A stretch of DNA of 64,000 nt, from the NCBI RefSeq assembly GCF_009931435.1, contig NZ_CP043414.1; one strand, given 5' to 3'. The first letter of the stretch is position 1; every line of letters starts with the position of its first letter. The stretch comes from Escherichia coli. Its GTDB lineage: Bacteria > Pseudomonadota > Gammaproteobacteria > Enterobacterales > Enterobacteriaceae. The translations under genes and the position numbers were made by a program. Under the pieces are notes generated by a model. The model worked only from the letters and a program-made list of their open reading frames with translations. It did not search any database and was not told where the DNA came from. Below are positions 46,825 to 56,269 of this stretch, in pieces.

Positions 46825-48060
46825 ATGGTATTAAGTAACTGTATTCAATGTCAGTCATGCAAATTTATATATAGAGTTAGGGTTGGTATTGGGTTTGATA
46901 AATACCAAAGACATTATATGGACTGTTTTGAGTGTAATATTCCTATTGTTTTTGCTATACGAACAGACCCACCAAATGCTTATCTTGAAGCGGAAGAAAA
47001 CTGCCTAATTGTTGAACATAGTACAGACCACAAGGTTGTTAACTTCCATCCGGGATGTGCTTTTAATAAAGATGAGATACATCAGTCACTGATATTCCCA
47101 TCTATTGAATTGACACAAATGATTCATAAACATATGAGGATGCCGAAAGGACAACGCCTTATAAGTGCCTCTCATCAATTTGATATTCCCAACGCCCCCT
47201 CCAAATGGAATTATTTAAAATCAATAATAAAACTTATTAATGAAGGAAAGAAAGACAAAGCTCAGAATACAGCAAAGCTTTATATGCAATCAAGAAATAA
47301 AGAGTTACCTTTGTATAATGAAGATGATAGCTATTCCTCTACATCTCTAATCTATGAGTTTTTAGATTGGCTTTTCTATCCTCGAGTACATGATATAGCC
47401 GATTCCATTAAAAAAACAATTGATGACCTTAAAGAACAAAATTTGTTGGATGATTTTTACGCTTTCTATAAAGAAAATTTAAAATCCGAAAATGAACAAA
47501 GATACATCAATATAATATCAGATTTCATGGCTCGTAGAGATCATTTCGGGCAGTTAATCTATTACGCAAGAATTAACAACGATGCAATAGACGATAAGAT
47601 AATTAGCTCTAAGAACTTCGATAATGTAAGAAATTATTATGGAGATGCTTATGAAAGTCTGACATCTAACATGACTATTTTAGCATGTATTAATAACATC
47701 GTCAGTGGAAGGGCATTCGATCAGTTCAAGCAAATGACATTGAATAAATACATAAAGGATGTAAATAAAGACAGTAAAACAAACCCATTTAAGGACAACC
47801 CTTTATTTAGCGCATTTTGTGAAGATGATTTAGAGTCAGCAATAAGAAATGGTTCTCATCATGCCTCTATATGGCATGACGGAGAGAGTATTCGATATAG
47901 AAGTGGCGGAACTGGCGCAGAAAGAGAAATAAGCTATACAAAATATATTCACCTTTGTAATAAGCTAACTCTTAAAATCGTAAGTTTGTGGTTAATTGAA
48001 CTTCATATCCAACATATTTACGAAAAAGATGATAATAGCTATGCATGGTTTCATCTTTAA
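46825..48060 (+). CDS. Hypothetical protein, 411 aa, AT-rich cargo gene with N-terminal Cys cluster (possible zinc ribbon); function unknown
   Basis: Long ORF with AAGGA RBS 8 nt upstream of ATG; sampled lines are about 28-37 percent G+C versus about 50 percent in flanking genes; N-terminus CIQCQSC...CFEC; rest rich in K/N/D/E/Y; no family recognised by eye. Confidence 0.6.
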   Translation: MVLSNCIQCQSCKFIYRVRVGIGFDKYQRHYMDCFECNIPIVFAIRTDPPNAYLEAEENCLIVEHSTDHKVVNFHPGCAFNKDEIHQSLIFPSIELTQMIHKHMRMPKGQRLISASHQFDIPNAPSKWNYLKSIIKLINEGKKDKAQNTAKLYMQSRNKELPLYNEDDSYSSTSLIYEFLDWLFYPRVHDIADSIKKTIDDLKEQNLLDDFYAFYKENLKSENEQRYINIISDFMARRDHFGQLIYYARINNDAIDDKIISSKNFDNVRNYYGDAYESLTSNMTILACINNIVSGRAFDQFKQMTLNKYIKDVNKDSKTNPFKDNPLFSAFCEDDLESAIRNGSHHASIWHDGESIRYRSGGTGAEREISYTKYIHLCNKLTLKIVSLWLIELHIQHIYEKDDNSYAWFHL

Positions 48061-48553: not shown

Positions 48554-48579
48554 TATAAAAAACCCGCACTAGGCGGGTA
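48554..48579 (-). terminator. Rho-independent terminator of the 84-aa gene (minus strand)
   Basis: Plus strand reads aaaaaa-acccgc-actag-gcgggt; on the minus strand this is a perfect 6-bp GC stem followed by a T-run, directly after the ORF stop. Confidence 0.55.
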
Positions 48580-48589
48580 CTAAAGAGAG

Positions 48590-48844
48590 CTATTTCATTT
48601 CGTTAAGTGCGTACGCACCTCTATCAGTGAGTGCAAAAAAGCCATCCCTTACGCTGGGTTGAATCAACCCAAACATACGCAATTCACCCAGTATTTGTTC
48701 TGAGCGACTACCAGCACCAGAATGCTTAATTAGTGCAAATTCAGGCTGTGCTTCTTCACTGAGCAAAGTCAATATTTTGACAATGGCGTCACGTTTGCTT
48801 TCATCTGCAATGTCATGGTATGGATTGATGGAACAGGTTACCAT
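48590..48844 (-). CDS. Hypothetical small protein, 84 aa, monocistronic
   Basis: ORF MVTCSINPYHDIADESKRDAIVKILTLLSEEAQPEF... bounded by terminator-like hairpins on both sides; separate transcription unit from the tail operon. Confidence 0.45.
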   Translation of the reverse strand: MVTCSINPYHDIADESKRDAIVKILTLLSEEAQPEFALIKHSGAGSRSEQILGELRMFGLIQPSVRDGFFALTDRGAYALNEMK

Positions 48845-48984: not shown

Positions 48985-49010
48985 TCAAAAAGCCGCATTA
49001 TGCGCGGGCT
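48985..49010 (-). terminator. Candidate terminator of the prophage tail operon
   Basis: Imperfect GC hairpin (gcccgcgcataatgcggc on the minus strand) followed by a T-run, a few bases after the stop of the 567-aa gene. Confidence 0.4.
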
Positions 49011-49020
49011 GATGGGATGA

Positions 49021-50724
49021 TCAGGCGATGATTTTCTGGTACTTACTTCGGGTCTGTCCTGCTTTCTCTGCTGTCTGGGTAAATGCTCCGGCATTGGTTG
49101 GCGTACCAACACTGGGGTGCGAATGACTCGCACATTGCTGCGCCAGCTCTGCCAGTAAATCAATGGTGTCCAACATCATGGTCAGCGTGTTTACACTCTC
49201 ACTGCCGATATGGATGGTTGGCCCCATAATCTGCTGACCGCCCGATGCTACCGATTTGCGTAATGCAGTAATCTTTTCAGTCAGGCTTTCGCCAACCTCC
49301 ACGGCTACAGCACCGCCCACTTTAATGGACTGCTGTCCTGCTATGTCCGTTTCTTCGTTTCCTTCAATGCTGGCCAGCCTGTTACCTTTCACGGCCTGGC
49401 TAAAATCCCCGGCACTGACCTGCTGAATGGCTCCGGCTAGCAGGGTGGCGGTCCCCACCACAATGGTTTTATCCGTGGCTTTAACCGTGGTTTCGCGACT
49501 GACCAGATCACGTTGTTCTGTATCTGCTTTTACCGTTCGCACCATCGATGTTTCACTGATGGTCTGATCGGTCTGCCTTACCCAGTCACCCGCCAGAGTC
49601 ACCCTCTGGGATACTTCTTCCCGCTGCTGCTGCAATTGCTCACCGGGTTTAACGTCCGGCAGACTGGTGCCATCCGGTAGCGTCTGCCTGATAAAAGGTT
49701 TATCCGGTCTGCCTCCTGTGAATGCGACCTCAACCAGCGTCCCTTCTGGCGGGAACTGAAACATACCTGAATCATTCCCGGCCATTGGTACCGGCAGCGG
49801 CACCGCTGAATAAACAGGCGTCTGATTGTCCGGATTTCCGTCTGCGTCAAGCAGCTGCACGTCCACGGCGTAACGTGGCCGGAAGGGATCGGCAAAGTTA
49901 CCGCTTTTTACCGGCTCTGAATGCGCCACGACTCTGGCCATCTTTGGCAAATGAAGCCCGGATGCCAGTTCCGGGTAATGGCTTTCAATCTGCCGTTGCG
50001 CTGGTGTTTTCTGCAAAGGTTTACCCGTTGCGCGGTTTCTCGGCGTCCATGTGATCGCCATCGTGTCATTAGTCAGGTGAACTTTAGTCACGCGTTCACC
50101 GTTCATCTCCACCCCTGGCCGCATAGTCTGGATCACTGGTAATGTCACAGAGTTACCGCCAGCAGCCCCCTGGCTGAACTCTGACGGGATTTCTACTGGA
50201 CGACCGGCAAACAATGACTTTTCTGCGCCGCCGACGTAAAGCGAACCATCAGGTAACTGGTACCAGATGTAATCCTGGATACTGAACGCCCTGCCCAGAT
50301 TGTTCAGCAACTGATAACCAGTACCGTTATGGGTAAAATGTGGGATGGGGGTATCGCTGTACTGTGCATCAGGCACACTGACCGTGATCCCGCTGTTTTC
50401 TTCCAGCCAGCCCGCAATTTCACGCAAAGTCGGGTGTTGAAACGAACATGGCCACATCCTTTCAAACACACCTACCAGCTCACGAATGAATAGGCGCTGA
50501 AAACCGTTTTCAGCGGGCTGCGATCGCTCCACATACCCCGTAAACCAGCGCAAAAGCAGATCGGTATACCCCACATCCAGCCGCACCAGTTTTCCGGTGT
50601 AATCGGTTGTTGTCTCTGCGGTGATGAAGCCCCGGCCGCAGCTGTTCAGCTCCAGTACCAGGCTGACATCCACCAGGTGAACTTCATCCGTTGAAAGGTA
50701 AAGACGTTTTACTGGTTTCATCAT
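49021..50724 (-). CDS. Phage baseplate hub/spike protein (gpD/VgrG-like), 567 aa
   Basis: Last gene of the tail operon; C-terminal third is a low-complexity V/T/G/S-rich repeat region typical of beta-helical spikes; call is by architecture and context only. Confidence 0.5.
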   Translation of the reverse strand: MMKPVKRLYLSTDEVHLVDVSLVLELNSCGRGFITAETTTDYTGKLVRLDVGYTDLLLRWFTGYVERSQPAENGFQRLFIRELVGVFERMWPCSFQHPTLREIAGWLEENSGITVSVPDAQYSDTPIPHFTHNGTGYQLLNNLGRAFSIQDYIWYQLPDGSLYVGGAEKSLFAGRPVEIPSEFSQGAAGGNSVTLPVIQTMRPGVEMNGERVTKVHLTNDTMAITWTPRNRATGKPLQKTPAQRQIESHYPELASGLHLPKMARVVAHSEPVKSGNFADPFRPRYAVDVQLLDADGNPDNQTPVYSAVPLPVPMAGNDSGMFQFPPEGTLVEVAFTGGRPDKPFIRQTLPDGTSLPDVKPGEQLQQQREEVSQRVTLAGDWVRQTDQTISETSMVRTVKADTEQRDLVSRETTVKATDKTIVVGTATLLAGAIQQVSAGDFSQAVKGNRLASIEGNEETDIAGQQSIKVGGAVAVEVGESLTEKITALRKSVASGGQQIMGPTIHIGSESVNTLTMMLDTIDLLAELAQQCASHSHPSVGTPTNAGAFTQTAEKAGQTRSKYQKIIA

Positions 50725-51269
50725 TAATCCAAAGCATCATTGACGGGCTTCAGCACCTTGCGTTCAAACCACGTCAGTTTTTCTTCATCCTCTCCGGCAG
50801 ACTGGCCACCGAACTGCCCCGCACTACCGGCAGTCTGTTTTTTTGCGGTCGTCTTACCTGTTGCCCTGGCCTCTCGCTTTTCCTGCACGCTGATATGTTC
50901 AGCCAGTGTGAATGTCACCAGCCAGGACATTTTCCCGTCCTGCTGGGGCGCATCCAGCATTCCGCTGAACGTTGCTTCACGAAAATTAACAGCACGGGCA
51001 ACTTCATGCGCCACGCGGTACTTCTGACGATTACCACTGGCATCGGTAGCACTGGCCAGCTCAAAAATACGCTTCAGTATTTCAGGCTGTTTAAAAGGTA
51101 TTTCACCGCTGATCCGCAGTTCCTTTCCCTTTGCTCCCTGCTCTGATTTTGTTGTGGCACTGGTCTGGCCGGACTGATCTTTATCCTGAAATTGCTGTGA
51201 AACAGTCACCCGCATGTTTTTCAGCTGGATGGCCTCGCCATTAAGCGCCAGTGTCGGGATCGAAGTCAT
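50724..51269 (-). CDS. Phage tail-associated protein, unknown function (181 aa)
   Basis: ORF translationally coupled (ATGA overlap) to the hub gene; no family recognised. Confidence 0.4.
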   Translation of the reverse strand: MTSIPTLALNGEAIQLKNMRVTVSQQFQDKDQSGQTSATTKSEQGAKGKELRISGEIPFKQPEILKRIFELASATDASGNRQKYRVAHEVARAVNFREATFSGMLDAPQQDGKMSWLVTFTLAEHISVQEKREARATGKTTAKKQTAGSAGQFGGQSAGEDEEKLTWFERKVLKPVNDALD

Positions 51270-52002
51270 GAATCATTCCCTTTATTCCATCAAGATTATC
51301 GCCAACCAGCATCATGGCTGCGGTGTAAACGGCAGACTGCTGCGGAATGTCCTTCACCAGTTCCAGTAACGTTGTGCCGGTGTCTCCGCTGGCAGTAAAA
51401 ACCCACGCTCTGGCACTCTTCCCCTGTAAGTCATTCAGGCCGCTGGCCACATCACTGATAAGCTGGTCACGCAGCTGCGTGAACTCGCCCAGCTGTTTTT
51501 TCAGCCCTTCGATATCAAATCCGGCACCCGCCACCTTTTGTGCCTGGTTGATTGCCGCAGCAGATAAAGCTGCCCTGCTGGTTGGTACAGACAGTGGAAT
51601 GGACGCAGGTAACGCTGCGGCGGTTTTCGCCGGGATCTGCATCTTTTCAATAGCCAGCGCTGCGGCGGATTGCGCCAGCCGTTTTACCTGCGTGAATGCC
51701 GGGGCGGGGAAAATCCCGACCAGGTTATTCAGGCTGGCCATAAAGTTTTCCTGCGTCTGTCCGGTGACCATCATAATCACCACGTCCACATTCCCCCCAG
51801 TTCCGGCCAGGCGTTCAGCAAGATAGCGAACAGCATTAACCGGGCTGAGATATGCCCCGTTCGCTGTCTGCTGTCCCAGCCCATAAATCCACGGATGCGC
51901 AGGGACGATCGAACAGTTCAGCGCAGCAACAGAATCCGTGAAGGCCAGACGTGCTTCACGCCACATTTCCAGGCACCTCCGGCCACACAATTTCCGGCGC
52001 AT
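51241..52002 (-). CDS. Phage tail-associated protein, unknown function (about 240-253 aa)
   Basis: Ala-rich ORF overlapping both neighbours in the tail operon; true start may be the internal MWREARLAF. Confidence 0.4.
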   Translation of the reverse strand: MRRKLCGRRCLEMWREARLAFTDSVAALNCSIVPAHPWIYGLGQQTANGAYLSPVNAVRYLAERLAGTGGNVDVVIMMVTGQTQENFMASLNNLVGIFPAPAFTQVKRLAQSAAALAIEKMQIPAKTAAALPASIPLSVPTSRAALSAAAINQAQKVAGAGFDIEGLKKQLGEFTQLRDQLISDVASGLNDLQGKSARAWVFTASGDTGTTLLELVKDIPQQSAVYTAAMMLVGDNLDGIKGMIHDFDPDTGA

Positions 52003-52543
52003 CTTCCGCTTGAATACGATTCAGTAAAACGCGGTATTTTTTCCATGCGGTAAGTAACAATGTTTCTTCCTGGCTCGCCATGCCTAAAACAACAGCATCC
52101 TGCAATGTGGCAATGGCAGTATGGGCCTGTTTAAGCAGTCTTATCTTTTCCAATTCTGCCTCACGGGTTAATGCAACTCGCATAGACTCAGCATCATCCT
52201 CCCATTTACTGCCATTCCATTTTTGCCATGCGTTTTCAGGCTCCAGAGTAGTTGTTCCAGCTGGATAATCCCCTGGTGCTGTTATCACGAACCTTCTAGC
52301 GTCTTTCGTATCAAATACAATTTCGCCACGGTGATCTTTAATAGCAATCCATTTCTGTTTTTCTGTATTAAAAATTGCCACGAATCCGTCTTTTGTTAAT
52401 GGAGGTTTAATTGTGGTGCAATTGGCTGGTAGTCCTGTGTGAGCGGGAATAAAAGCGTTATCACTACCAATAAACTCATTCGTCTCAGAATGAAGTTTAT
52501 AAACAGTAACTGTTTGATCGATATCACTCATTTTAAATATCAT
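51956..52543 (-). CDS. Tail fibre assembly protein (Tfa/Mu U-like)
   Basis: [43 protein letters not shown]... and C-terminal EETLLLTAWKKYRVLLNRIQAEDAPEIVWPEVP closely resemble K-12 cryptic-prophage Tfa proteins. Confidence 0.8.
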   Translation of the reverse strand: MIFKMSDIDQTVTVYKLHSETNEFIGSDNAFIPAHTGLPANCTTIKPPLTKDGFVAIFNTEKQKWIAIKDHRGEIVFDTKDARRFVITAPGDYPAGTTTLEPENAWQKWNGSKWEDDAESMRVALTREAELEKIRLLKQAHTAIATLQDAVVLGMASQEETLLLTAWKKYRVLLNRIQAEDAPEIVWPEVPGNVA

Positions 52544-54150
52544 TAAGCGAGTCTCACGATATAGTTTAATGCAATGTTTTTAACAGTGTTTTCTGAAGTA
52601 CCCGCAGCATTAACCGTAATGGTGTGTCCATGCGAACCAATCGCAACAGAGTGCGTATGAGCACCAATACCGACAGTATGTTTATGCTCCCCAGCACTTG
52701 CTGCAGTACCTGATACCGAGTGGGTGTGTGCGCCCGCAGAATTCGTTGCACCTAAGTGAGTTTGAGCAGAGTTCGACGAAGCTACTCTACCGGAGCTAAC
52801 GTTAGCATTATCTCCCTGAGATATCGGATGTGTATGTGCACCTGCTGAAGCAGCTGTTCCGCTAACACTATGGGTATGAGCACCAGTGTTATTCGTAGAT
52901 TTAGTTCCATAATCAAACGATGATGTGGTTTTTGTCCCTAAATCGGTATTTGAGGCACTGGCGCTATGGGTATGTGACTTAATATTATCCTGTTCATAAG
53001 ATAATACGGCACGTCCGCTGTTAGGCTTACCTTTAATCGTCTGCCCGCGCATATCAGGAATAACACCCAATGGATACGCAGCAGCCAATAATGGATATAC
53101 TGCCTTATCAAAAGACTGCCCCTGCATAATTGCCCAGCCAGGAGGTGGAATATCTGCTGGCCATGGAAGTGGAACACCAACCGGCAGAACATCACTACGA
53201 CTTAAAACGGCCAGTTCACCCAGCTCCAGGCTTTTTCTTGCTTTCACCTTGTCGCTAACATCAGCAAGGTTTGCATCCTTACGCAAAAAATCGCTGCTGG
53301 CCTGCTGTTCTCCCAGGCTACCCTTTGGCCGTAAATCCGTGATGTTGCCATCCGCATCAATGCTGGCCACAGCAAACACATAATGCTGAACCCCGTTCTG
53401 AACATAATCAGCAAGATTTGCTGCCACCGTGATTTTGCTCTGCACATTCCAGACACTGGTCAGTGTCCCTGTCCAGCACACATCCAGCCAGACTTTTACC
53501 GGCTTTGTCGTTACCGTAATATTCTGATTCGCAGCCAGTGACGCACGAAGTCCAGCCACATACCCCGTGCCTTTCGTGACAAAAAACTGATTGCCGGTTT
53601 TGGCTACCAGATACCCGTTACCAAAAAACGCCGCCGCGCCATAAATATCCATATTTTCCAGGCGCTGGCGTTCATCCATTCCGGCCAGACGTGCAGTAAA
53701 ATCAATCTGCCATGTTTCAGCGGGTGTATTAATCCCGGTTTCCGTTTGTGCGCCATTGTACTCCATCAGAAACGAGCGGGTCAGCACGTTCCCCTGTTGA
53801 CCTTCTTTTGTTTTCAGTTTCTGCTGTGATGGTGCATGGACAATCATTGCCAGCGTACCGCTGGCCTTATTGAGCAGACCGATCCAGTTAAAACTGAAAT
53901 CACCCACATCTGCGCCCAGCACTACGGAATAGACCACACCGTTTTCATCCACCACACCGGTGCGGGTAACAGACTGCCGGTGAACAATCTGTGCAGCCGG
54001 TGGTAATGTTTCATTGCGGTCAACAGGTGTATCCGGGTTTAAATCCGGCACACTGGCAAAAACAAATTCATCCAGTAGTACCGGTTCACCCGTTGCGCCC
54101 TGCTGCGCTTTCCAGTTTTCAAACGCCAATGTGATGGCTGTCTGTGACAT
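52543..54150 (-). CDS. Tail fibre protein (gpH / side-tail-fibre family) with His-rich receptor-binding tip
   Basis: 535-aa; C-terminus ...[23 protein letters not shown]...[63 protein letters not shown] matches the conserved Stf/Mu-S type C-terminal domain. Confidence 0.8.
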
Positions 54151-54160
54151 AAAAACCTCC

Positions 54161-54754
54161 TTACAAACTCGCGCTGAATGTTGCGCTGCGGGCTTCCGTC
54201 CCTGCTAACGTCGCCGGGTAAACCACATATTCCCCCTGACCCCACCCGGCCCTGATAACCAGGCTTTCAGGCGTGATCACCTCAAACTGATAACGGCGGC
54301 ATGTTCGCCCGTACTGGCGGATTATCTGGATCAGCAGCTGCGTGTTGTCTGCAATCTGGCTGTCTGTAACCCGAACCAGAATCACATCCCAGTCGATATC
54401 CGGTTGCCGTTCGAACAGCTCCACATAACCAATTCCCAGCCGTTCAAAGATATTGATAAACCCCTCAACTGAACCAGCATCCCGCGCATTCACGAAGGCA
54501 AAAGCCACACGTTTGCGGAACAGGGTCAACGGTTCACCATCAAAGCGGGTGATATCCCGGTCATAAGCCAGCAGGTTCAGTAATGCCGGTGTACACGTCA
54601 GCGGATCAAACTGATTCATTGGCCAGGTAATCCAGCCGTAAACCTCAGCCCAGAACCGCCGCGCCGTTTTCAGCAATTTCCCCGGTTCGCCTTTATTCAT
54701 CCAGGACGGCAGGAACATCCCGGCCAGCTTTTTCATGAACTCATTCATTCTCAA
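54161..54754 (-). CDS. Phage tail protein I-like (baseplate component)
   Basis: 197-aa ORF between the J-like and tail-fibre genes; [11 protein letters not shown] motif resembles gpI-family proteins. Confidence 0.55.
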
Positions 54755-55925
54755 TATTCACCGTCAGTGATTTCAGACGCGGCACGCTCAGTTCACTGGT
54801 AATGTCTCCCAACGAAAATGTCAGTGATTCCGTCTGTGCAAAGGTTTTATGAATTTCCCGCCCCAGTTGCGAAAAGGAAAACCGCGAATATGGCCACGTC
54901 TTTCTGACGTCATAATCAGCATTTTCACGAAAGGCACAGCGGATCATGTTTTCAATGCCGCCCTTCAGCGTTTTCACCTCTTCGTCACTGAAGTTGTTCA
55001 GATTTTTGACATAAACTGTGACGGCCAGATCGTGAAGAGTTTCCGGCATGGGATAGCACTGCATATCATCACCATGCCCGTGGTGCCCCAGCGTGTTGAT
55101 ATAGTCATTCACCGCATCCACGAACGGCGCTGATGCCACCCCACTGTCCAGTAATAAAAAGGCGTTGGCTGTTCCTGGCCCCCTCGGTGCTTCATGCTCA
55201 AAGAAAATCCGATCGATACTCAACCCGGCAACACTGGCGATCATTGAGCGATAAACCGCATCAGTGTGGTAATTCCCCACCAGATTGAACTGATTGCGGC
55301 AACGCTCGCGCAATTCATCATCACTTTCCTCGTCAGCCCCCGGCACTGTCAGCCAGTTTTCCTCACTGGCCACATGGCTGATACCACTGACCGCCATCGG
55401 CAGAATGCGGTAATATCCGGGCGCAAGGTTATATGCGCCCCCGGTGCCAGTGGCTTTCACCGGCAGTAATGCGCTGGCCGCGCCGGAAGCGATCACCACA
55501 TCCTCAGTGGTGGCCAGCTCATACACTCGCCCGTTAATGCGTTCTGTCTGGATAACCGTCCCGGCGTTGACCGTCACAACGGCCTTTGCATCTTCTTTGA
55601 AGAACCGAATAACCCCCTGCGCAGCGCTCGCTGGTTTTGCCGTGACGTTCACCGCCCATGCCAGCAAACGCAACATGCTCCCGCTGGCTGTGGCCACAAA
55701 CATATTGGCCAGCACGGTTAACACCAGAACGTCTTTAAGCCACATCACCGGGGCGGTCACAATGGCGGTGATTAATCGCCAGAACGGTGACATTCGGGAT
55801 GTATTGGTGATAATTCCCTCATCTGCTGCAATTGCATTGAAGCGTTCCCGCACTTCGGCTTCCGTTACCGGCATACCGCTGTCTTTCACCACTTCTTCAA
55901 AATCAACCTGCGGTTTTTCCGTCAT
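54741..55925 (-). CDS. Baseplate J-like protein (gpJ/gp47 family)
   Basis: Start placed at MTEKPQVDFEEV, which forms an ATGA overlap with the upstream W-like gene; size and position typical of baseplate J. Confidence 0.7.
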   Translation of the reverse strand: MTEKPQVDFEEVVKDSGMPVTEAEVRERFNAIAADEGIITNTSRMSPFWRLITAIVTAPVMWLKDVLVLTVLANMFVATASGSMLRLLAWAVNVTAKPASAAQGVIRFFKEDAKAVVTVNAGTVIQTERINGRVYELATTEDVVIASGAASALLPVKATGTGGAYNLAPGYYRILPMAVSGISHVASEENWLTVPGADEESDDELRERCRNQFNLVGNYHTDAVYRSMIASVAGLSIDRIFFEHEAPRGPGTANAFLLLDSGVASAPFVDAVNDYINTLGHHGHGDDMQCYPMPETLHDLAVTVYVKNLNNFSDEEVKTLKGGIENMIRCAFRENADYDVRKTWPYSRFSFSQLGREIHKTFAQTESLTFSLGDITSELSVPRLKSLTVNIENE

Positions 55926-56269
55926 AAATCCACCTGCGCAGAGATCCCGCCAAAATCGTATGTACTCGCGGTTACCCACAACCGCTTCTGACTTTCTTCA
56001 CTGATTTCCACCGTACCCGGCACAATGCGTTCATCATCTTCAATCAGTAATTCCATGCGGGTAAAAATATCCGCTCTCATTGTCGGGCTACGTTCGGCAA
56101 TTAATTCCGTCGCTAACCCACTTTCAATAATGGAATGAATAATGTCCTGCCCGATACTTTTTCGGTTATTACATAATTCAGGTTCATTACCGGTATTCAG
56201 AACAAAGTCACCGCCCTGAATCAGCAAATCGATATAAAGAACATCACTCATGCGCCAAGCTCCTGCCAT
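55922..56269 (-). CDS. Baseplate W-like (gp25-like) small protein, 115 aa
   Basis: Size and position immediately upstream of the J-like gene; assignment by context. Confidence 0.45.
   Translation of the reverse strand: MAGAWRMSDVLYIDLLIQGGDFVLNTGNEPELCNNRKSIGQDIIHSIIESGLATELIAERSPTMRADIFTRMELLIEDDERIVPGTVEISEESQKRLWVTASTYDFGGISAQVDL

Follow-up and report, generated by a model that had tools for sequence, protein, structure and literature searches.

Homologues of HP1 orf33, orf34 and orf35, including a predicted fused hub-spike, close the tail operon of an Escherichia coli prophage

Phage HP1 is already known to fuse its homologues of the P2 proteins gpD and gpV into one polypeptide, and the same work links the homologue of HP1 orf34 to P2 gpU with a question mark, calling the HHpred link uncertain (PMC10612066, Table S1; 2023). 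In P2 itself the hub and the spike are made by separate genes, as the initial annotation of the present locus had it. According to the P2 record, V lies in a different operon from U and D and stands ahead of W-J-I-H-G, and U and D come immediately after the gene for the tape measure. The gene order described below is the same in HP1, K139, phiO18P, YenM_324, ESSI-2, SI7, A051 and F108.

The window analysed here is 64,000 nt of the E. coli contig NZ_CP043414.1. Its minus-strand tail operon runs in the order of tape measure, W-like, J, I, fibre and fibre-assembly genes, followed by genes for proteins of 241, 181 and 567 aa (Table 1), and the coordinates bear out that the last three ORFs were rightly placed after the fibre-assembly gene, all on the minus strand. 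The first of the three had been called as a 253-aa ORF at 51241-52002. Going downstream, the 241-, 181- and 567-aa genes overlap the gene before them by 11, 29 and 1 nt, respectively. A terminator-like hairpin lies 14 nt past the stop of the 567-aa gene, and K139 has an annotated terminator at the equivalent place, behind orf39. No internal terminator or promoter above chance was found among the three genes.

Table 1 Features of the late tail operon in the window
Feature	Position	Strand	Basis or remark
Tape measure gene	56248-58215	-	ORF
W-like/DUF2590 gene	55922-56269	-	ORF
J-like gene	54741-55979	-	ORF
I-like gene	54161-54754	-	ORF
Fibre gene	52543-54150	-	ORF
Fibre-assembly gene	51956-52543	-	ORF
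GGAGG ribosome-binding site of the 241-aa gene	51976..51980	-	Read from sequence; 9 nt upstream of ATG 51966
241-aa conserved protein, HP1 orf33 homologue	51241..51966	-	phrog_1677, synteny
181-aa tube-fold protein, HP1 orf34 homologue, probable tube initiator/ripcord (gpU class)	50724..51269	-	
567-aa predicted fused hub-spike, HP1 orf35 homologue, final late tail operon gene	49021..50724	-	PHROG, AF2, Foldseek
Hub module, residues 1 to ~240, compact gp27/gpD-like fold	50005..50724	-	Foldseek, stand-alone relatives
Linker helices and OB-fold region, residues ~241-384	49573..50004	-	Pfam, VgrG alignment
gp5-like triple-stranded beta-helix, residues ~385-512	49189..49572	-	phmmer, Pfam, repeats
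C-terminal apex, residues 513-567, H534-x-H536 motif	49021..49188	-	Conservation, Foldseek
Terminator-like hairpin	48993-49007	-	CCGCGCATAATGCGG then CTTTTTGATA; closes operon

The full late order of sheath, tube, lysis, tape measure, W, J, I, fibre, assembly, orf33-34-35 and operon end matches the records of HP1 and Escherichia phage ESSI2_ev015 (Peduoviridae, Quadragintavirus), and the latter has 93% nucleotide identity over the whole block. The element is also 99.9% identical in nucleotides to an E. coli chromosome. It is very likely a Quadragintavirus-like prophage of the HP1 subgroup of Peduoviridae, resident in E. coli, with 49021-51966 as its inner-baseplate module. The three genes are an HP1-type inner-baseplate set, made up of a predicted fused hub-spike, a probable tube starter and one conserved protein.

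Related loci with HMM matches (the IMG/VR scans were centred on phi3 and K139) numbered 251, from Haemophilus, Pasteurella, Vibrio, Aeromonas, Pseudomonas and enterobacterial phages. The gene order is constant in all 251, and the family of the 241-aa protein is present in 243. What had been described as a non-canonical baseplate order is therefore so only relative to the P2 record, but standard in HP1 and its relatives. Because the arrangement was previously described for the HP1-type group, it is ordinary, being the conserved order of the subgroup and not peculiar to the present locus.

An unknown protein of about 250 aa had been proposed for the first of the three genes. The ORF exists, but translation most likely starts at ATG 51966 and yields 241 rather than 253 aa, because a GGAGG site precedes this ATG, the conserved N-terminal 'MW' of the family starts at it, enterobacterial homologues are nearly all 241 aa, and both RefSeq and PGAP annotate the 241-aa form. 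The protein belongs to phrog_1677 (E 1.4e-76), is homologous to HP1 orf33 along its entire length and has no match in Pfam, NCBIfam or PDB sequence searches. NCBIfam likewise holds no family for the 181- or 567-aa protein, and when PDB sequences were searched by phmmer and by profile, the 241- and 181-aa proteins and their alignments returned noise only. For modelling, these two proteins were joined by a 25-residue Gly/Ser linker, and fold matches were scored on the joined chain, in which the 241-aa protein has a confident AF2 model without a fold match.

In these 243 loci the 241-aa family lies upstream of the orf34 homologue. Among the eight loci that lack it, L190 carries unrelated 135- and 155-aa ORFs instead, and L090 carries 266- and 102-aa ORFs. 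It is the fastest evolving of the three families, with identities of 17-55% versus 33-70% for the 181-aa family. In ACA1, 2 spectra from virions belong to its homologue gp46, and the gpD and gpV homologues were detected there too (PMC10612066). Mass spectrometry in the PV94 paper is limited to the tape measure protein and a single baseplate protein. In the record of Yersinia phage vB_YenM_324 the orf33 homologue is named 'structural protein', and a literature search found no paper on this phage.

The 241-aa protein is probably a low-copy virion or baseplate component, such as an adaptor, or an assembly factor. That it stays outside the virion, acting as an assembly chaperone or fibre-module factor that only some types of fibre or baseplate require, is somewhat unlikely. 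Such a role would suit a gene that comes right after the fibre-assembly gene, with translational coupling between the two, that evolves so fast, that is missing in L190 and L090 where fibre-distal genes differ too, and whose product has no structural counterpart in solved baseplates; the ACA1 detection, moreover, consists of two spectra only. On the other hand, per unit mass those spectra amount to 0.09 for the homologue, within the baseplate range (gpW 0.08, gpJ 0.05, gpV 0.06; PMC10612066). ACA1 retains the gene despite a completely different receptor-binding module, and the N-terminal domain of the fibre is conserved even in loci without the family.

A bolder version of the baseplate reading, in which the family (HP1 orf33 / PHROG 1677) would be a baseplate component peculiar to the HP1 subgroup and folded unlike anything in solved contractile-tail baseplates, we consider unlikely. 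PDB sequences include no HP1-subgroup baseplate structure. If this version were true, the 241-aa protein could replace the LysM 'glue' protein (P2 gpX class) or complement the short hub of ~240 aa, and the inner baseplate of HP1-type phages would differ in construction from those of P2, Mu, T4 and pyocins.

The 181-aa protein matches Pfam PF25759 (HP1_ORF34) over residues 6-181 (E 2.2e-53), as do 20 of 20 diverse homologues. In the joined-chain model, for which the fold searches list matches without showing the part of the query concerned, it has a tail-tube fold and most resembles tube initiators and ripcords, pointing to a probable tube initiator or ripcord of the P2 gpU / pyocin PA0626 class. 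Pfam Phage_P2_GpU (PF06995) matches neither the query nor any of the 20 homologues. Public records misname the family 'adenine glycosylase' or 'nucleoid DNA-binding protein'.

Whether the two proteins are structural or cargo carried inside the operon had been left undecided at first. That either or both genes would be cargo (morons, defence or lysogenic-conversion genes) is very improbable, even if neither product has an NCBIfam match, the 241-aa one also lacks a Pfam match, the 181-aa family bears unrelated names in public records, and its homologue went undetected in ACA1 virions (PMC10612066). Both genes keep one fixed position in 243 of the 251 loci across diverse hosts and overlap their neighbours without a promoter or terminator of their own. 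Their GC contents of 0.52-0.56 resemble that of the operon (0.525), in contrast with 0.326 for the truly variable downstream gene, and the predicted tail-tube fold of the 181-aa protein also argues for a structural role. The variable cargo slot lies elsewhere, downstream of the 567-aa gene between an 84-aa ORF and mntR. Membership among cargo or moron genes was thus rejected, as no variable presence, atypical composition or own expression signals were found, and synteny, GC content, fold and virion data favour structural proteins. Further downstream of the module, a 411-aa ORF gave nothing from PADLOC or Pfam.

The 567-aa protein matches phrog_2258 ('baseplate protein') over its full length with an E-value of 3.5e-276. 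Its AlphaFold2 monomer model has a pLDDT of 94.5, and with this model Foldseek found full-length matches to VgrG, Afp8 and Pvc8 as well as to Algoriphagus and Streptomyces CIS spikes (550-680 columns, E 2e-18 to 4e-14). Further matches are stand-alone hubs, namely those of Mu (gp44), MuSo2, P1, E217, Pa193 and phiTE and the R2 hub (E 1e-10 to 2e-5), and stand-alone spikes, namely P2 gpV (3qr8, TM 0.76 on the target), the R2 spike (4s37) and Mu gp45. Because VgrG, Afp8 and Pvc8 are matched in full and stand-alone hubs and spikes are matched besides, the protein is predicted to be a fused hub-spike of VgrG-like type, in line with the fusion suggested in the initial annotation, whose proposed check by structure prediction it passed.

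Four parts can be told apart in this protein. First, the N-terminal hub of gp27/gpD type is recognized at the fold level only; Pfam Phage_GPD (PF05954) gives no match in this part even at E<=10. The module is ~50-150 aa shorter than solved hubs, and may therefore correspond to gp27 only in part. Second, the OB domain is detected by Pfam Phage_base_V at residues 309-345 (E 3.3e-4), and residues 259-497 align in sequence with residues 365-596 of VgrG. Third, the beta-helix is found by phmmer against PDB (T4 gp5 beta-helix, E 1e-6, query 414-508) and by Pfam Gp5_trimer_C (E 3e-3). The V/T/G/S-rich C-terminal third noticed earlier holds in that the repeats are real, with gp5-like octapeptide repeats visible and V/T/G/S making up 42% of residues ~385-512 versus 27-32% elsewhere, but the repeats do not reach the C-terminus, as a helical/apex part of ~55 aa follows. 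Fourth, this apex resembles the gpV-type tip with a conserved HxH, a putative metal site. Of 87-88 aligned homologues, 91-92% keep His534 and His536, and in the apex of P2 gpV the HxH motif is an iron-binding metal site.

It is extremely improbable that the protein is instead a tail fibre, a tailspike enzyme or a lysin, as its long repetitive V/T/G/S-rich part and PHROG matches to 'baseplate hub and tail lysozyme' families might suggest, since those matches are limited to the beta-helix (residues 382-551), Pfam and PDB searches show no lysozyme or other enzyme domain, every fold match with E <1e-5 is a central spike or hub, and a separate fibre gene and assembly gene lie upstream.

The boundary within the predicted hub-spike is also seen in relatives. 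In phi3, UFJF_PfPro and about 71-78 other loci (IMG/VR), the hub and the spike are separate adjacent genes. Such split forms were found in Pseudomonas and some Vibrio phages. Their stand-alone hub genes encode 225-234 aa (~226-236 aa in the representative library), and their stand-alone spike genes begin at query residue ~243. With fused and split forms in sister clades, the group offers a natural experiment on VgrG-like fusions.

Judging from solved baseplates, the 567-aa protein would form a trimer at the centre of the baseplate, plugging the tube, and would be driven through the outer membrane upon sheath contraction. We infer that the 181-aa protein would form a ring linking the trimeric hub to the hexameric tube, from which its disordered linker and conserved C-terminal helix could extend to adjacent proteins of the baseplate. 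The 241-aa protein would be their nearly universal partner, specific to the subgroup.

The value of these assignments lies mainly in correct annotation, as genes called 'hypothetical' or misnamed appear to be the central hub-spike and tube-initiator genes of widespread temperate phages of enterobacteria, Vibrio, Pseudomonas, Aeromonas and Pasteurellaceae. For tail structure, the conserved 241-aa partner is of interest in having a confident predicted structure and no known counterpart. Neither the fused and split forms nor this partner is surprising enough to alter current views.

Compared with P2, the likely roles correspond to those of gpD, gpV and gpU, with gpV being a good fold match (TMt 0.76), and a tube-fold protein stands directly upstream of the hub as in the P2 order T-U-D. 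The beta-helix of the 567-aa protein is longer than that of gpV and gp5-like. With hhalign, the family alignments gave non-significant results against single P2 gpD, gpV, gpU, gpX and gpW sequences, and tblastn of these five P2 proteins found nothing significant in the window, in HP1 or in ESSI2_ev015. At such divergence a single sequence is too weak a template for these negatives to count against common ancestry.

Among tube initiators and ripcords, Pam3 gp17, Pa193 gp38/gp39, pyocin R2 PA0626 and the N-terminal domain of Mu gp43 have 8-13% identity to the 181-aa protein, which differs from this class in lacking a LysM domain and in having a C-terminal tail of its own, a disordered stretch followed by a conserved helix. 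With VgrG and Afp8/Pvc8, which are gp27-gp5 fusions, the 567-aa protein shares the order of hub, OB fold and beta-helix in one chain. Significant sequence similarity is confined to the OB and beta-helix parts, the hub module has ~240 aa compared with ~365 aa in VgrG, and the C-terminus is like the gpV tip with HxH, unlike the end of VgrG. Moreover, unlike VgrG and CIS spikes, the present protein is phage-encoded and many of its relatives have it as two genes.

The closest likeness is to the HP1 group. HP1 orf33-orf34-orf35 (Hpunavirus), K139 orf37-39 and phiO18P gp44-46 comprise three homologues in identical order that close the late operon, behind the genes for the fibre and its assembly and right before the terminator and cos end, and orf35 is likewise one fused polypeptide of 533-543 aa. 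Identities of the HP1 proteins to the present 241-, 181- and 567-aa proteins are only 24%, ~39% and 42%, respectively, and close to the N-terminus the Vibrio, Aeromonas and Pseudomonas versions of the family contain ~57 aa that are missing from the present 241-aa form. ESSI2_ev015 gp01-gp03 have an identical layout, annotated as 'baseplate protein', 'hypothetical protein' and 'putative phage gene', and differ essentially in nothing, the present copy being a prophage beside mntR with a different downstream cargo gene.

A P2-like prophage late region, delineated with an ORF list and PHROG searches, occupies the minus strand from about 49.0 kb to the window's right end. Its last three genes encode proteins of 241 aa (orf33 family), 181 aa (orf34 family) and 567 aa (a homologue of orf35).

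Late-region genes in transcription order, followed by two downstream ORFs
Feature	Position	Strand	Basis or remark
Small terminase subunit, head-tail connector, tail completion		minus	ORF list, PHROG; transcribed first
Sheath	60237-61364	minus	ORF list, PHROG
Tube	59785-60240	minus	ORF list, PHROG
Holin, endolysin, spanin		minus	ORF list, PHROG; after tube
Tape measure	56248-58215	minus	ORF list, PHROG
W-like DUF2590 protein	55922-56269	minus	ORF list, PHROG
J-like	54741-55979	minus	ORF list, PHROG
I-like	54161-54754	minus	ORF list, PHROG
Fibre	52543-54150	minus	ORF list, PHROG
Fibre assembly	51956-52543	minus	ORF list, PHROG; then the three genes
84-aa ORF	48590-48844	minus	177 nt downstream of 567-aa gene
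411-aa ORF	46825-48060	plus	GC 0.326; N-terminal CxxC-rich segment

Overlaps of 11, 29 and 1 nt join the fibre-assembly gene and the 241-, 181- and 567-aa genes, and a hairpin with a T-run lies 14 nt past the last stop codon. Across 49021-52543, DNA identity is 93% to Escherichia phage ESSI2_ev015 (Peduoviridae, genus Quadragintavirus) and 99.9% to the E. coli MFDS1016424 chromosome, and this block is present in 49 of 5,426 complete E. coli genomes.

The initial annotation had placed all three ORFs properly except for one start, which made the first protein about 250 aa (the 253-aa ORF 51241-52002). The true start is almost certainly 51966, giving 241 aa, because GGAGG lies 9 nt 5′ of this ATG, the conserved 'MW' with which family members open lies at this ATG, enterobacterial homologues are nearly all 241 aa, and the RefSeq annotation agrees. 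The 567-aa ORF opens with 'MMK' (50721-50724, minus), of which homologues keep 'MK' (98% and 95%); translation may therefore really begin at its second ATG (566 aa), and the first overlaps the upstream stop as TAATG. The endolysin ORF (59145-59603, minus) is 152 aa mechanically versus 113 aa annotated in the ESSI2_ev015 homologue, so its real start is probably internal, as in the 241-aa case.

The 567-aa protein had been proposed as a fused hub-spike with a V/T/G/S-rich repeat region. That region was seen at residues 385-512, where these residues make up 42% versus 27-32% elsewhere and octapeptide repeats occur. A spike is indicated at the sequence level alone: Pfam Phage_base_V OB domain (residues 309-345, E 3.3e-4), Gp5_trimer_C, the T4 gp5 β-helix (residues 414-508, E 1e-6) and, weakly, VgrG (query 259-497 on VgrG 365-596). 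Pfam Phage_GPD gave no match, so the protein is not a sequence-level member of that family. An AlphaFold2 model from a 110-sequence alignment had a mean pLDDT of 94.5, and its Foldseek matches in the PDB fell into three tiers. In the first, 550-680 columns aligned with fused hub-spikes (E 2e-18 to 4e-14), namely Algoriphagus eCIS, several T6SS VgrG, PVC Pvc8, Streptomyces and Anabaena CIS, and AFP Afp8. Stand-alone hubs followed (phiTE, Mu gp44, MuSo2, P1, Pa193, E217, Bas63 and pyocin R2), then stand-alone spikes (Mu gp45, R2 spike and P2 gpV, the last with a TM-score of 0.76 on target). The hub module is about 240 aa, versus 285-366 aa in solved hubs and about 365 aa in the VgrG hub region. 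Near the C-terminus, H534-x-H536 is kept in 91-92% of homologues; in gpV an HxH motif is the iron site at the tip.

Searching 1.84 billion representative proteins yielded 714 relatives in three size classes: full-length (~520-610 aa), spike-only (~300-340 aa, starting at query residue ~243) and N-domain-only (~226-236 aa, matching residues 2-228). Because the sequence searches, the fused and split relatives, the full-length Foldseek matches and the HxH motif agree, the 567-aa protein is, as had been suggested, a hub-spike fusion, and it is VgrG-like.

Among collected loci the hub-spike is fused in 145 and split in 71. Pseudomonas phage phi3 encodes the N-domain in a 232-aa ORF that lacks annotation (L004:4537-5235) and lies directly upstream of a 323-aa 'Gp5 domain' gene; the RefSeq record NC_030940 annotates the spike gene and leaves the hub-module gene out, as is also the case for phage C5a (PMC10612066). 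The hub-spike is also split in UFJF_PfPro and in one Vibrio phage (10N.286.54.F4_PE002, L090:3559-5134), where it comprises three consecutive ORFs of 229, 232 and 65 aa. When the two upstream proteins are placed on a neighbour-joining tree, fused and split states form two clean clades (53 and 26 non-redundant sequences), a pattern for which one change suffices. More than one fusion or fission event may have occurred, because the sample was built around three clades and filtering removed the split Vibrio locus. A clade of fused forms represented by L190 has a shorter hub-spike (~470-484 aa), in which a Cys/His-rich tip, CAHICHFTGGPHGDG, replaces the HxH-containing end.

The 181-aa protein matches Pfam PF25759 'HP1 ORF34 baseplate complex protein' (E 2.2e-53), as do 20 of 20 diverse homologues, and PGAP names it 'baseplate complex protein'. 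It was modeled with the 241-aa protein as one chain with a 25-residue Gly/Ser linker (20 paired and 84 unpaired alignment rows). Mean pLDDT was 83, with both cores mostly above 90 and disorder in the linker and a ~23-residue stretch of the 181-aa protein. Fold matches included Milano gp25 and a LysM protein of phiCD508, followed by numerous tube and Hcp proteins (100-135 aligned residues); Foldseek returned the same class (E 5e-3 to 5e-2). These matches, which came without query ranges, are attributed to the 181-aa portion of the model, because its core of ~130 residues is predicted as a β sandwich that has a long loop and is flanked by a single helix, the prediction for the 241-aa portion is an α/β domain with long helices, and HHpred linked the homologue in phage ACA1 to Pfam GpU, marked uncertain (PMC10612066). 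At the sequence level, the 181-aa protein is not a member of Pfam GpU. Its modeled fold and its genomic position are those of the tube initiator/ripcord class. Several phage records call homologues 'nucleoid DNA-binding protein' or 'adenine glycosylase' (L004:3998-4537; L006:4001-4546; H73, H77, H80, H83), which look like annotation errors given the Pfam and fold results.

The 241-aa protein belongs to PHROG 1677 (labeled unknown function), and all 258 database relatives are named 'hypothetical'. It had no match in Pfam (even at E ≤ 10), in NCBIfam, in PDB sequences (as a single protein or a 20-sequence profile) or, within the joined model, in either fold search. Of the three proteins it has diverged furthest (17-55% identity among clades). 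The sole experimental sign, a hint, is mass spectrometry of ACA1 virions, in which the orf33 homologue gp46 gave 2 spectra (6% coverage), which per kDa is close to the counts for the homologues of gpW, gpJ and gpV; homologues of gpD and gpV were detected as well, and that of orf34 was not (PMC10612066). A homologue is absent from 8 of 251 loci. Unrelated ORFs of 135 and 155 aa take its place in the L190 clade (L190:2609-5449, IMG/VR contig 3300032251_000016; related loci L196, L197, L200, L207 and L224), and unrelated ORFs of 266 and 102 aa do so in L090, where no homologue was found upstream of the hub-spike.

The initial annotation had left open whether the two smaller proteins are structural or cargo. 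Cargo is ruled out for all three genes because their GC (0.52-0.56 vs 0.525 for the operon) is operon-like, synteny is fixed, and each gene's start is coupled to an adjacent gene. The segment that does vary is found past the end of the 567-aa gene, between the conserved 84-aa ORF and mntR, and looks like a cargo or defence slot. Its 411-aa ORF gave no Pfam match beyond a weak Cys-rich one and no PADLOC match, and just one of the 5,426 complete E. coli genomes has the segment in full. E. coli strain 573 carries an AIPR-family (abortive infection) gene in the slot between mntR and the prophage end, and the corresponding end holds HicAB in phi3 and a glycosyltransferase in UFJF_PfPro. The 84-aa ORF, followed by its own terminator-like hairpin (48562-48578), is kept at the same distance in strain 573 (WP_000255618.1). 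The related prophage of strain 573 has decayed: truncated pseudogenes for the tail fibre and the replication endonuclease lie directly against each other (L254:9523-10285, NZ_CP102853), so the stretch between fibre and replication gene was deleted, and all three inner-baseplate genes are intact.

Gene order had been called non-canonical, which holds against P2 only. HMMs of the three families were run on 253 loci drawn from three IMG/VR scans and the phage collection; the 251 loci with matches all keep orf33 (present in 243) ahead of orf34, then the hub part and the spike part. The window's module showed every defining feature of the HP1-type tail module that was tested and is a member of it; the tail modules of the HP1 and P2 subgroups are deeply diverged (2023 paper, PMC10612066). 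Thus the finding is correct and already known. Added here are fold-level confirmation with a firmer assignment of the orf34 family, the distribution of fused and split hub-spikes, and a confident predicted structure without known relative for the orf33 family.

In the P2 record, X lies near the lysis genes, followed by the V-W-J-I-H-G operon and then FI-FII-E-E′-T-U-D. The record of Haemophilus phage HP1 has the window's order (orf23 sheath, orf24 tube, hol, lys, orf27 tape measure, orf28-30, orf31 fibre, orf32 assembly, orf33, orf34, orf35), as do those of K139, phiO18P, vB_YenM_324, ESSI-2, SI7, A051 and F108. The 181-aa gene immediately precedes the hub gene, as U precedes D in P2. The 567-aa protein, with the same architecture as VgrG, Afp8 and Pvc8, would fulfil the roles inferred for P2 gpD and gpV.
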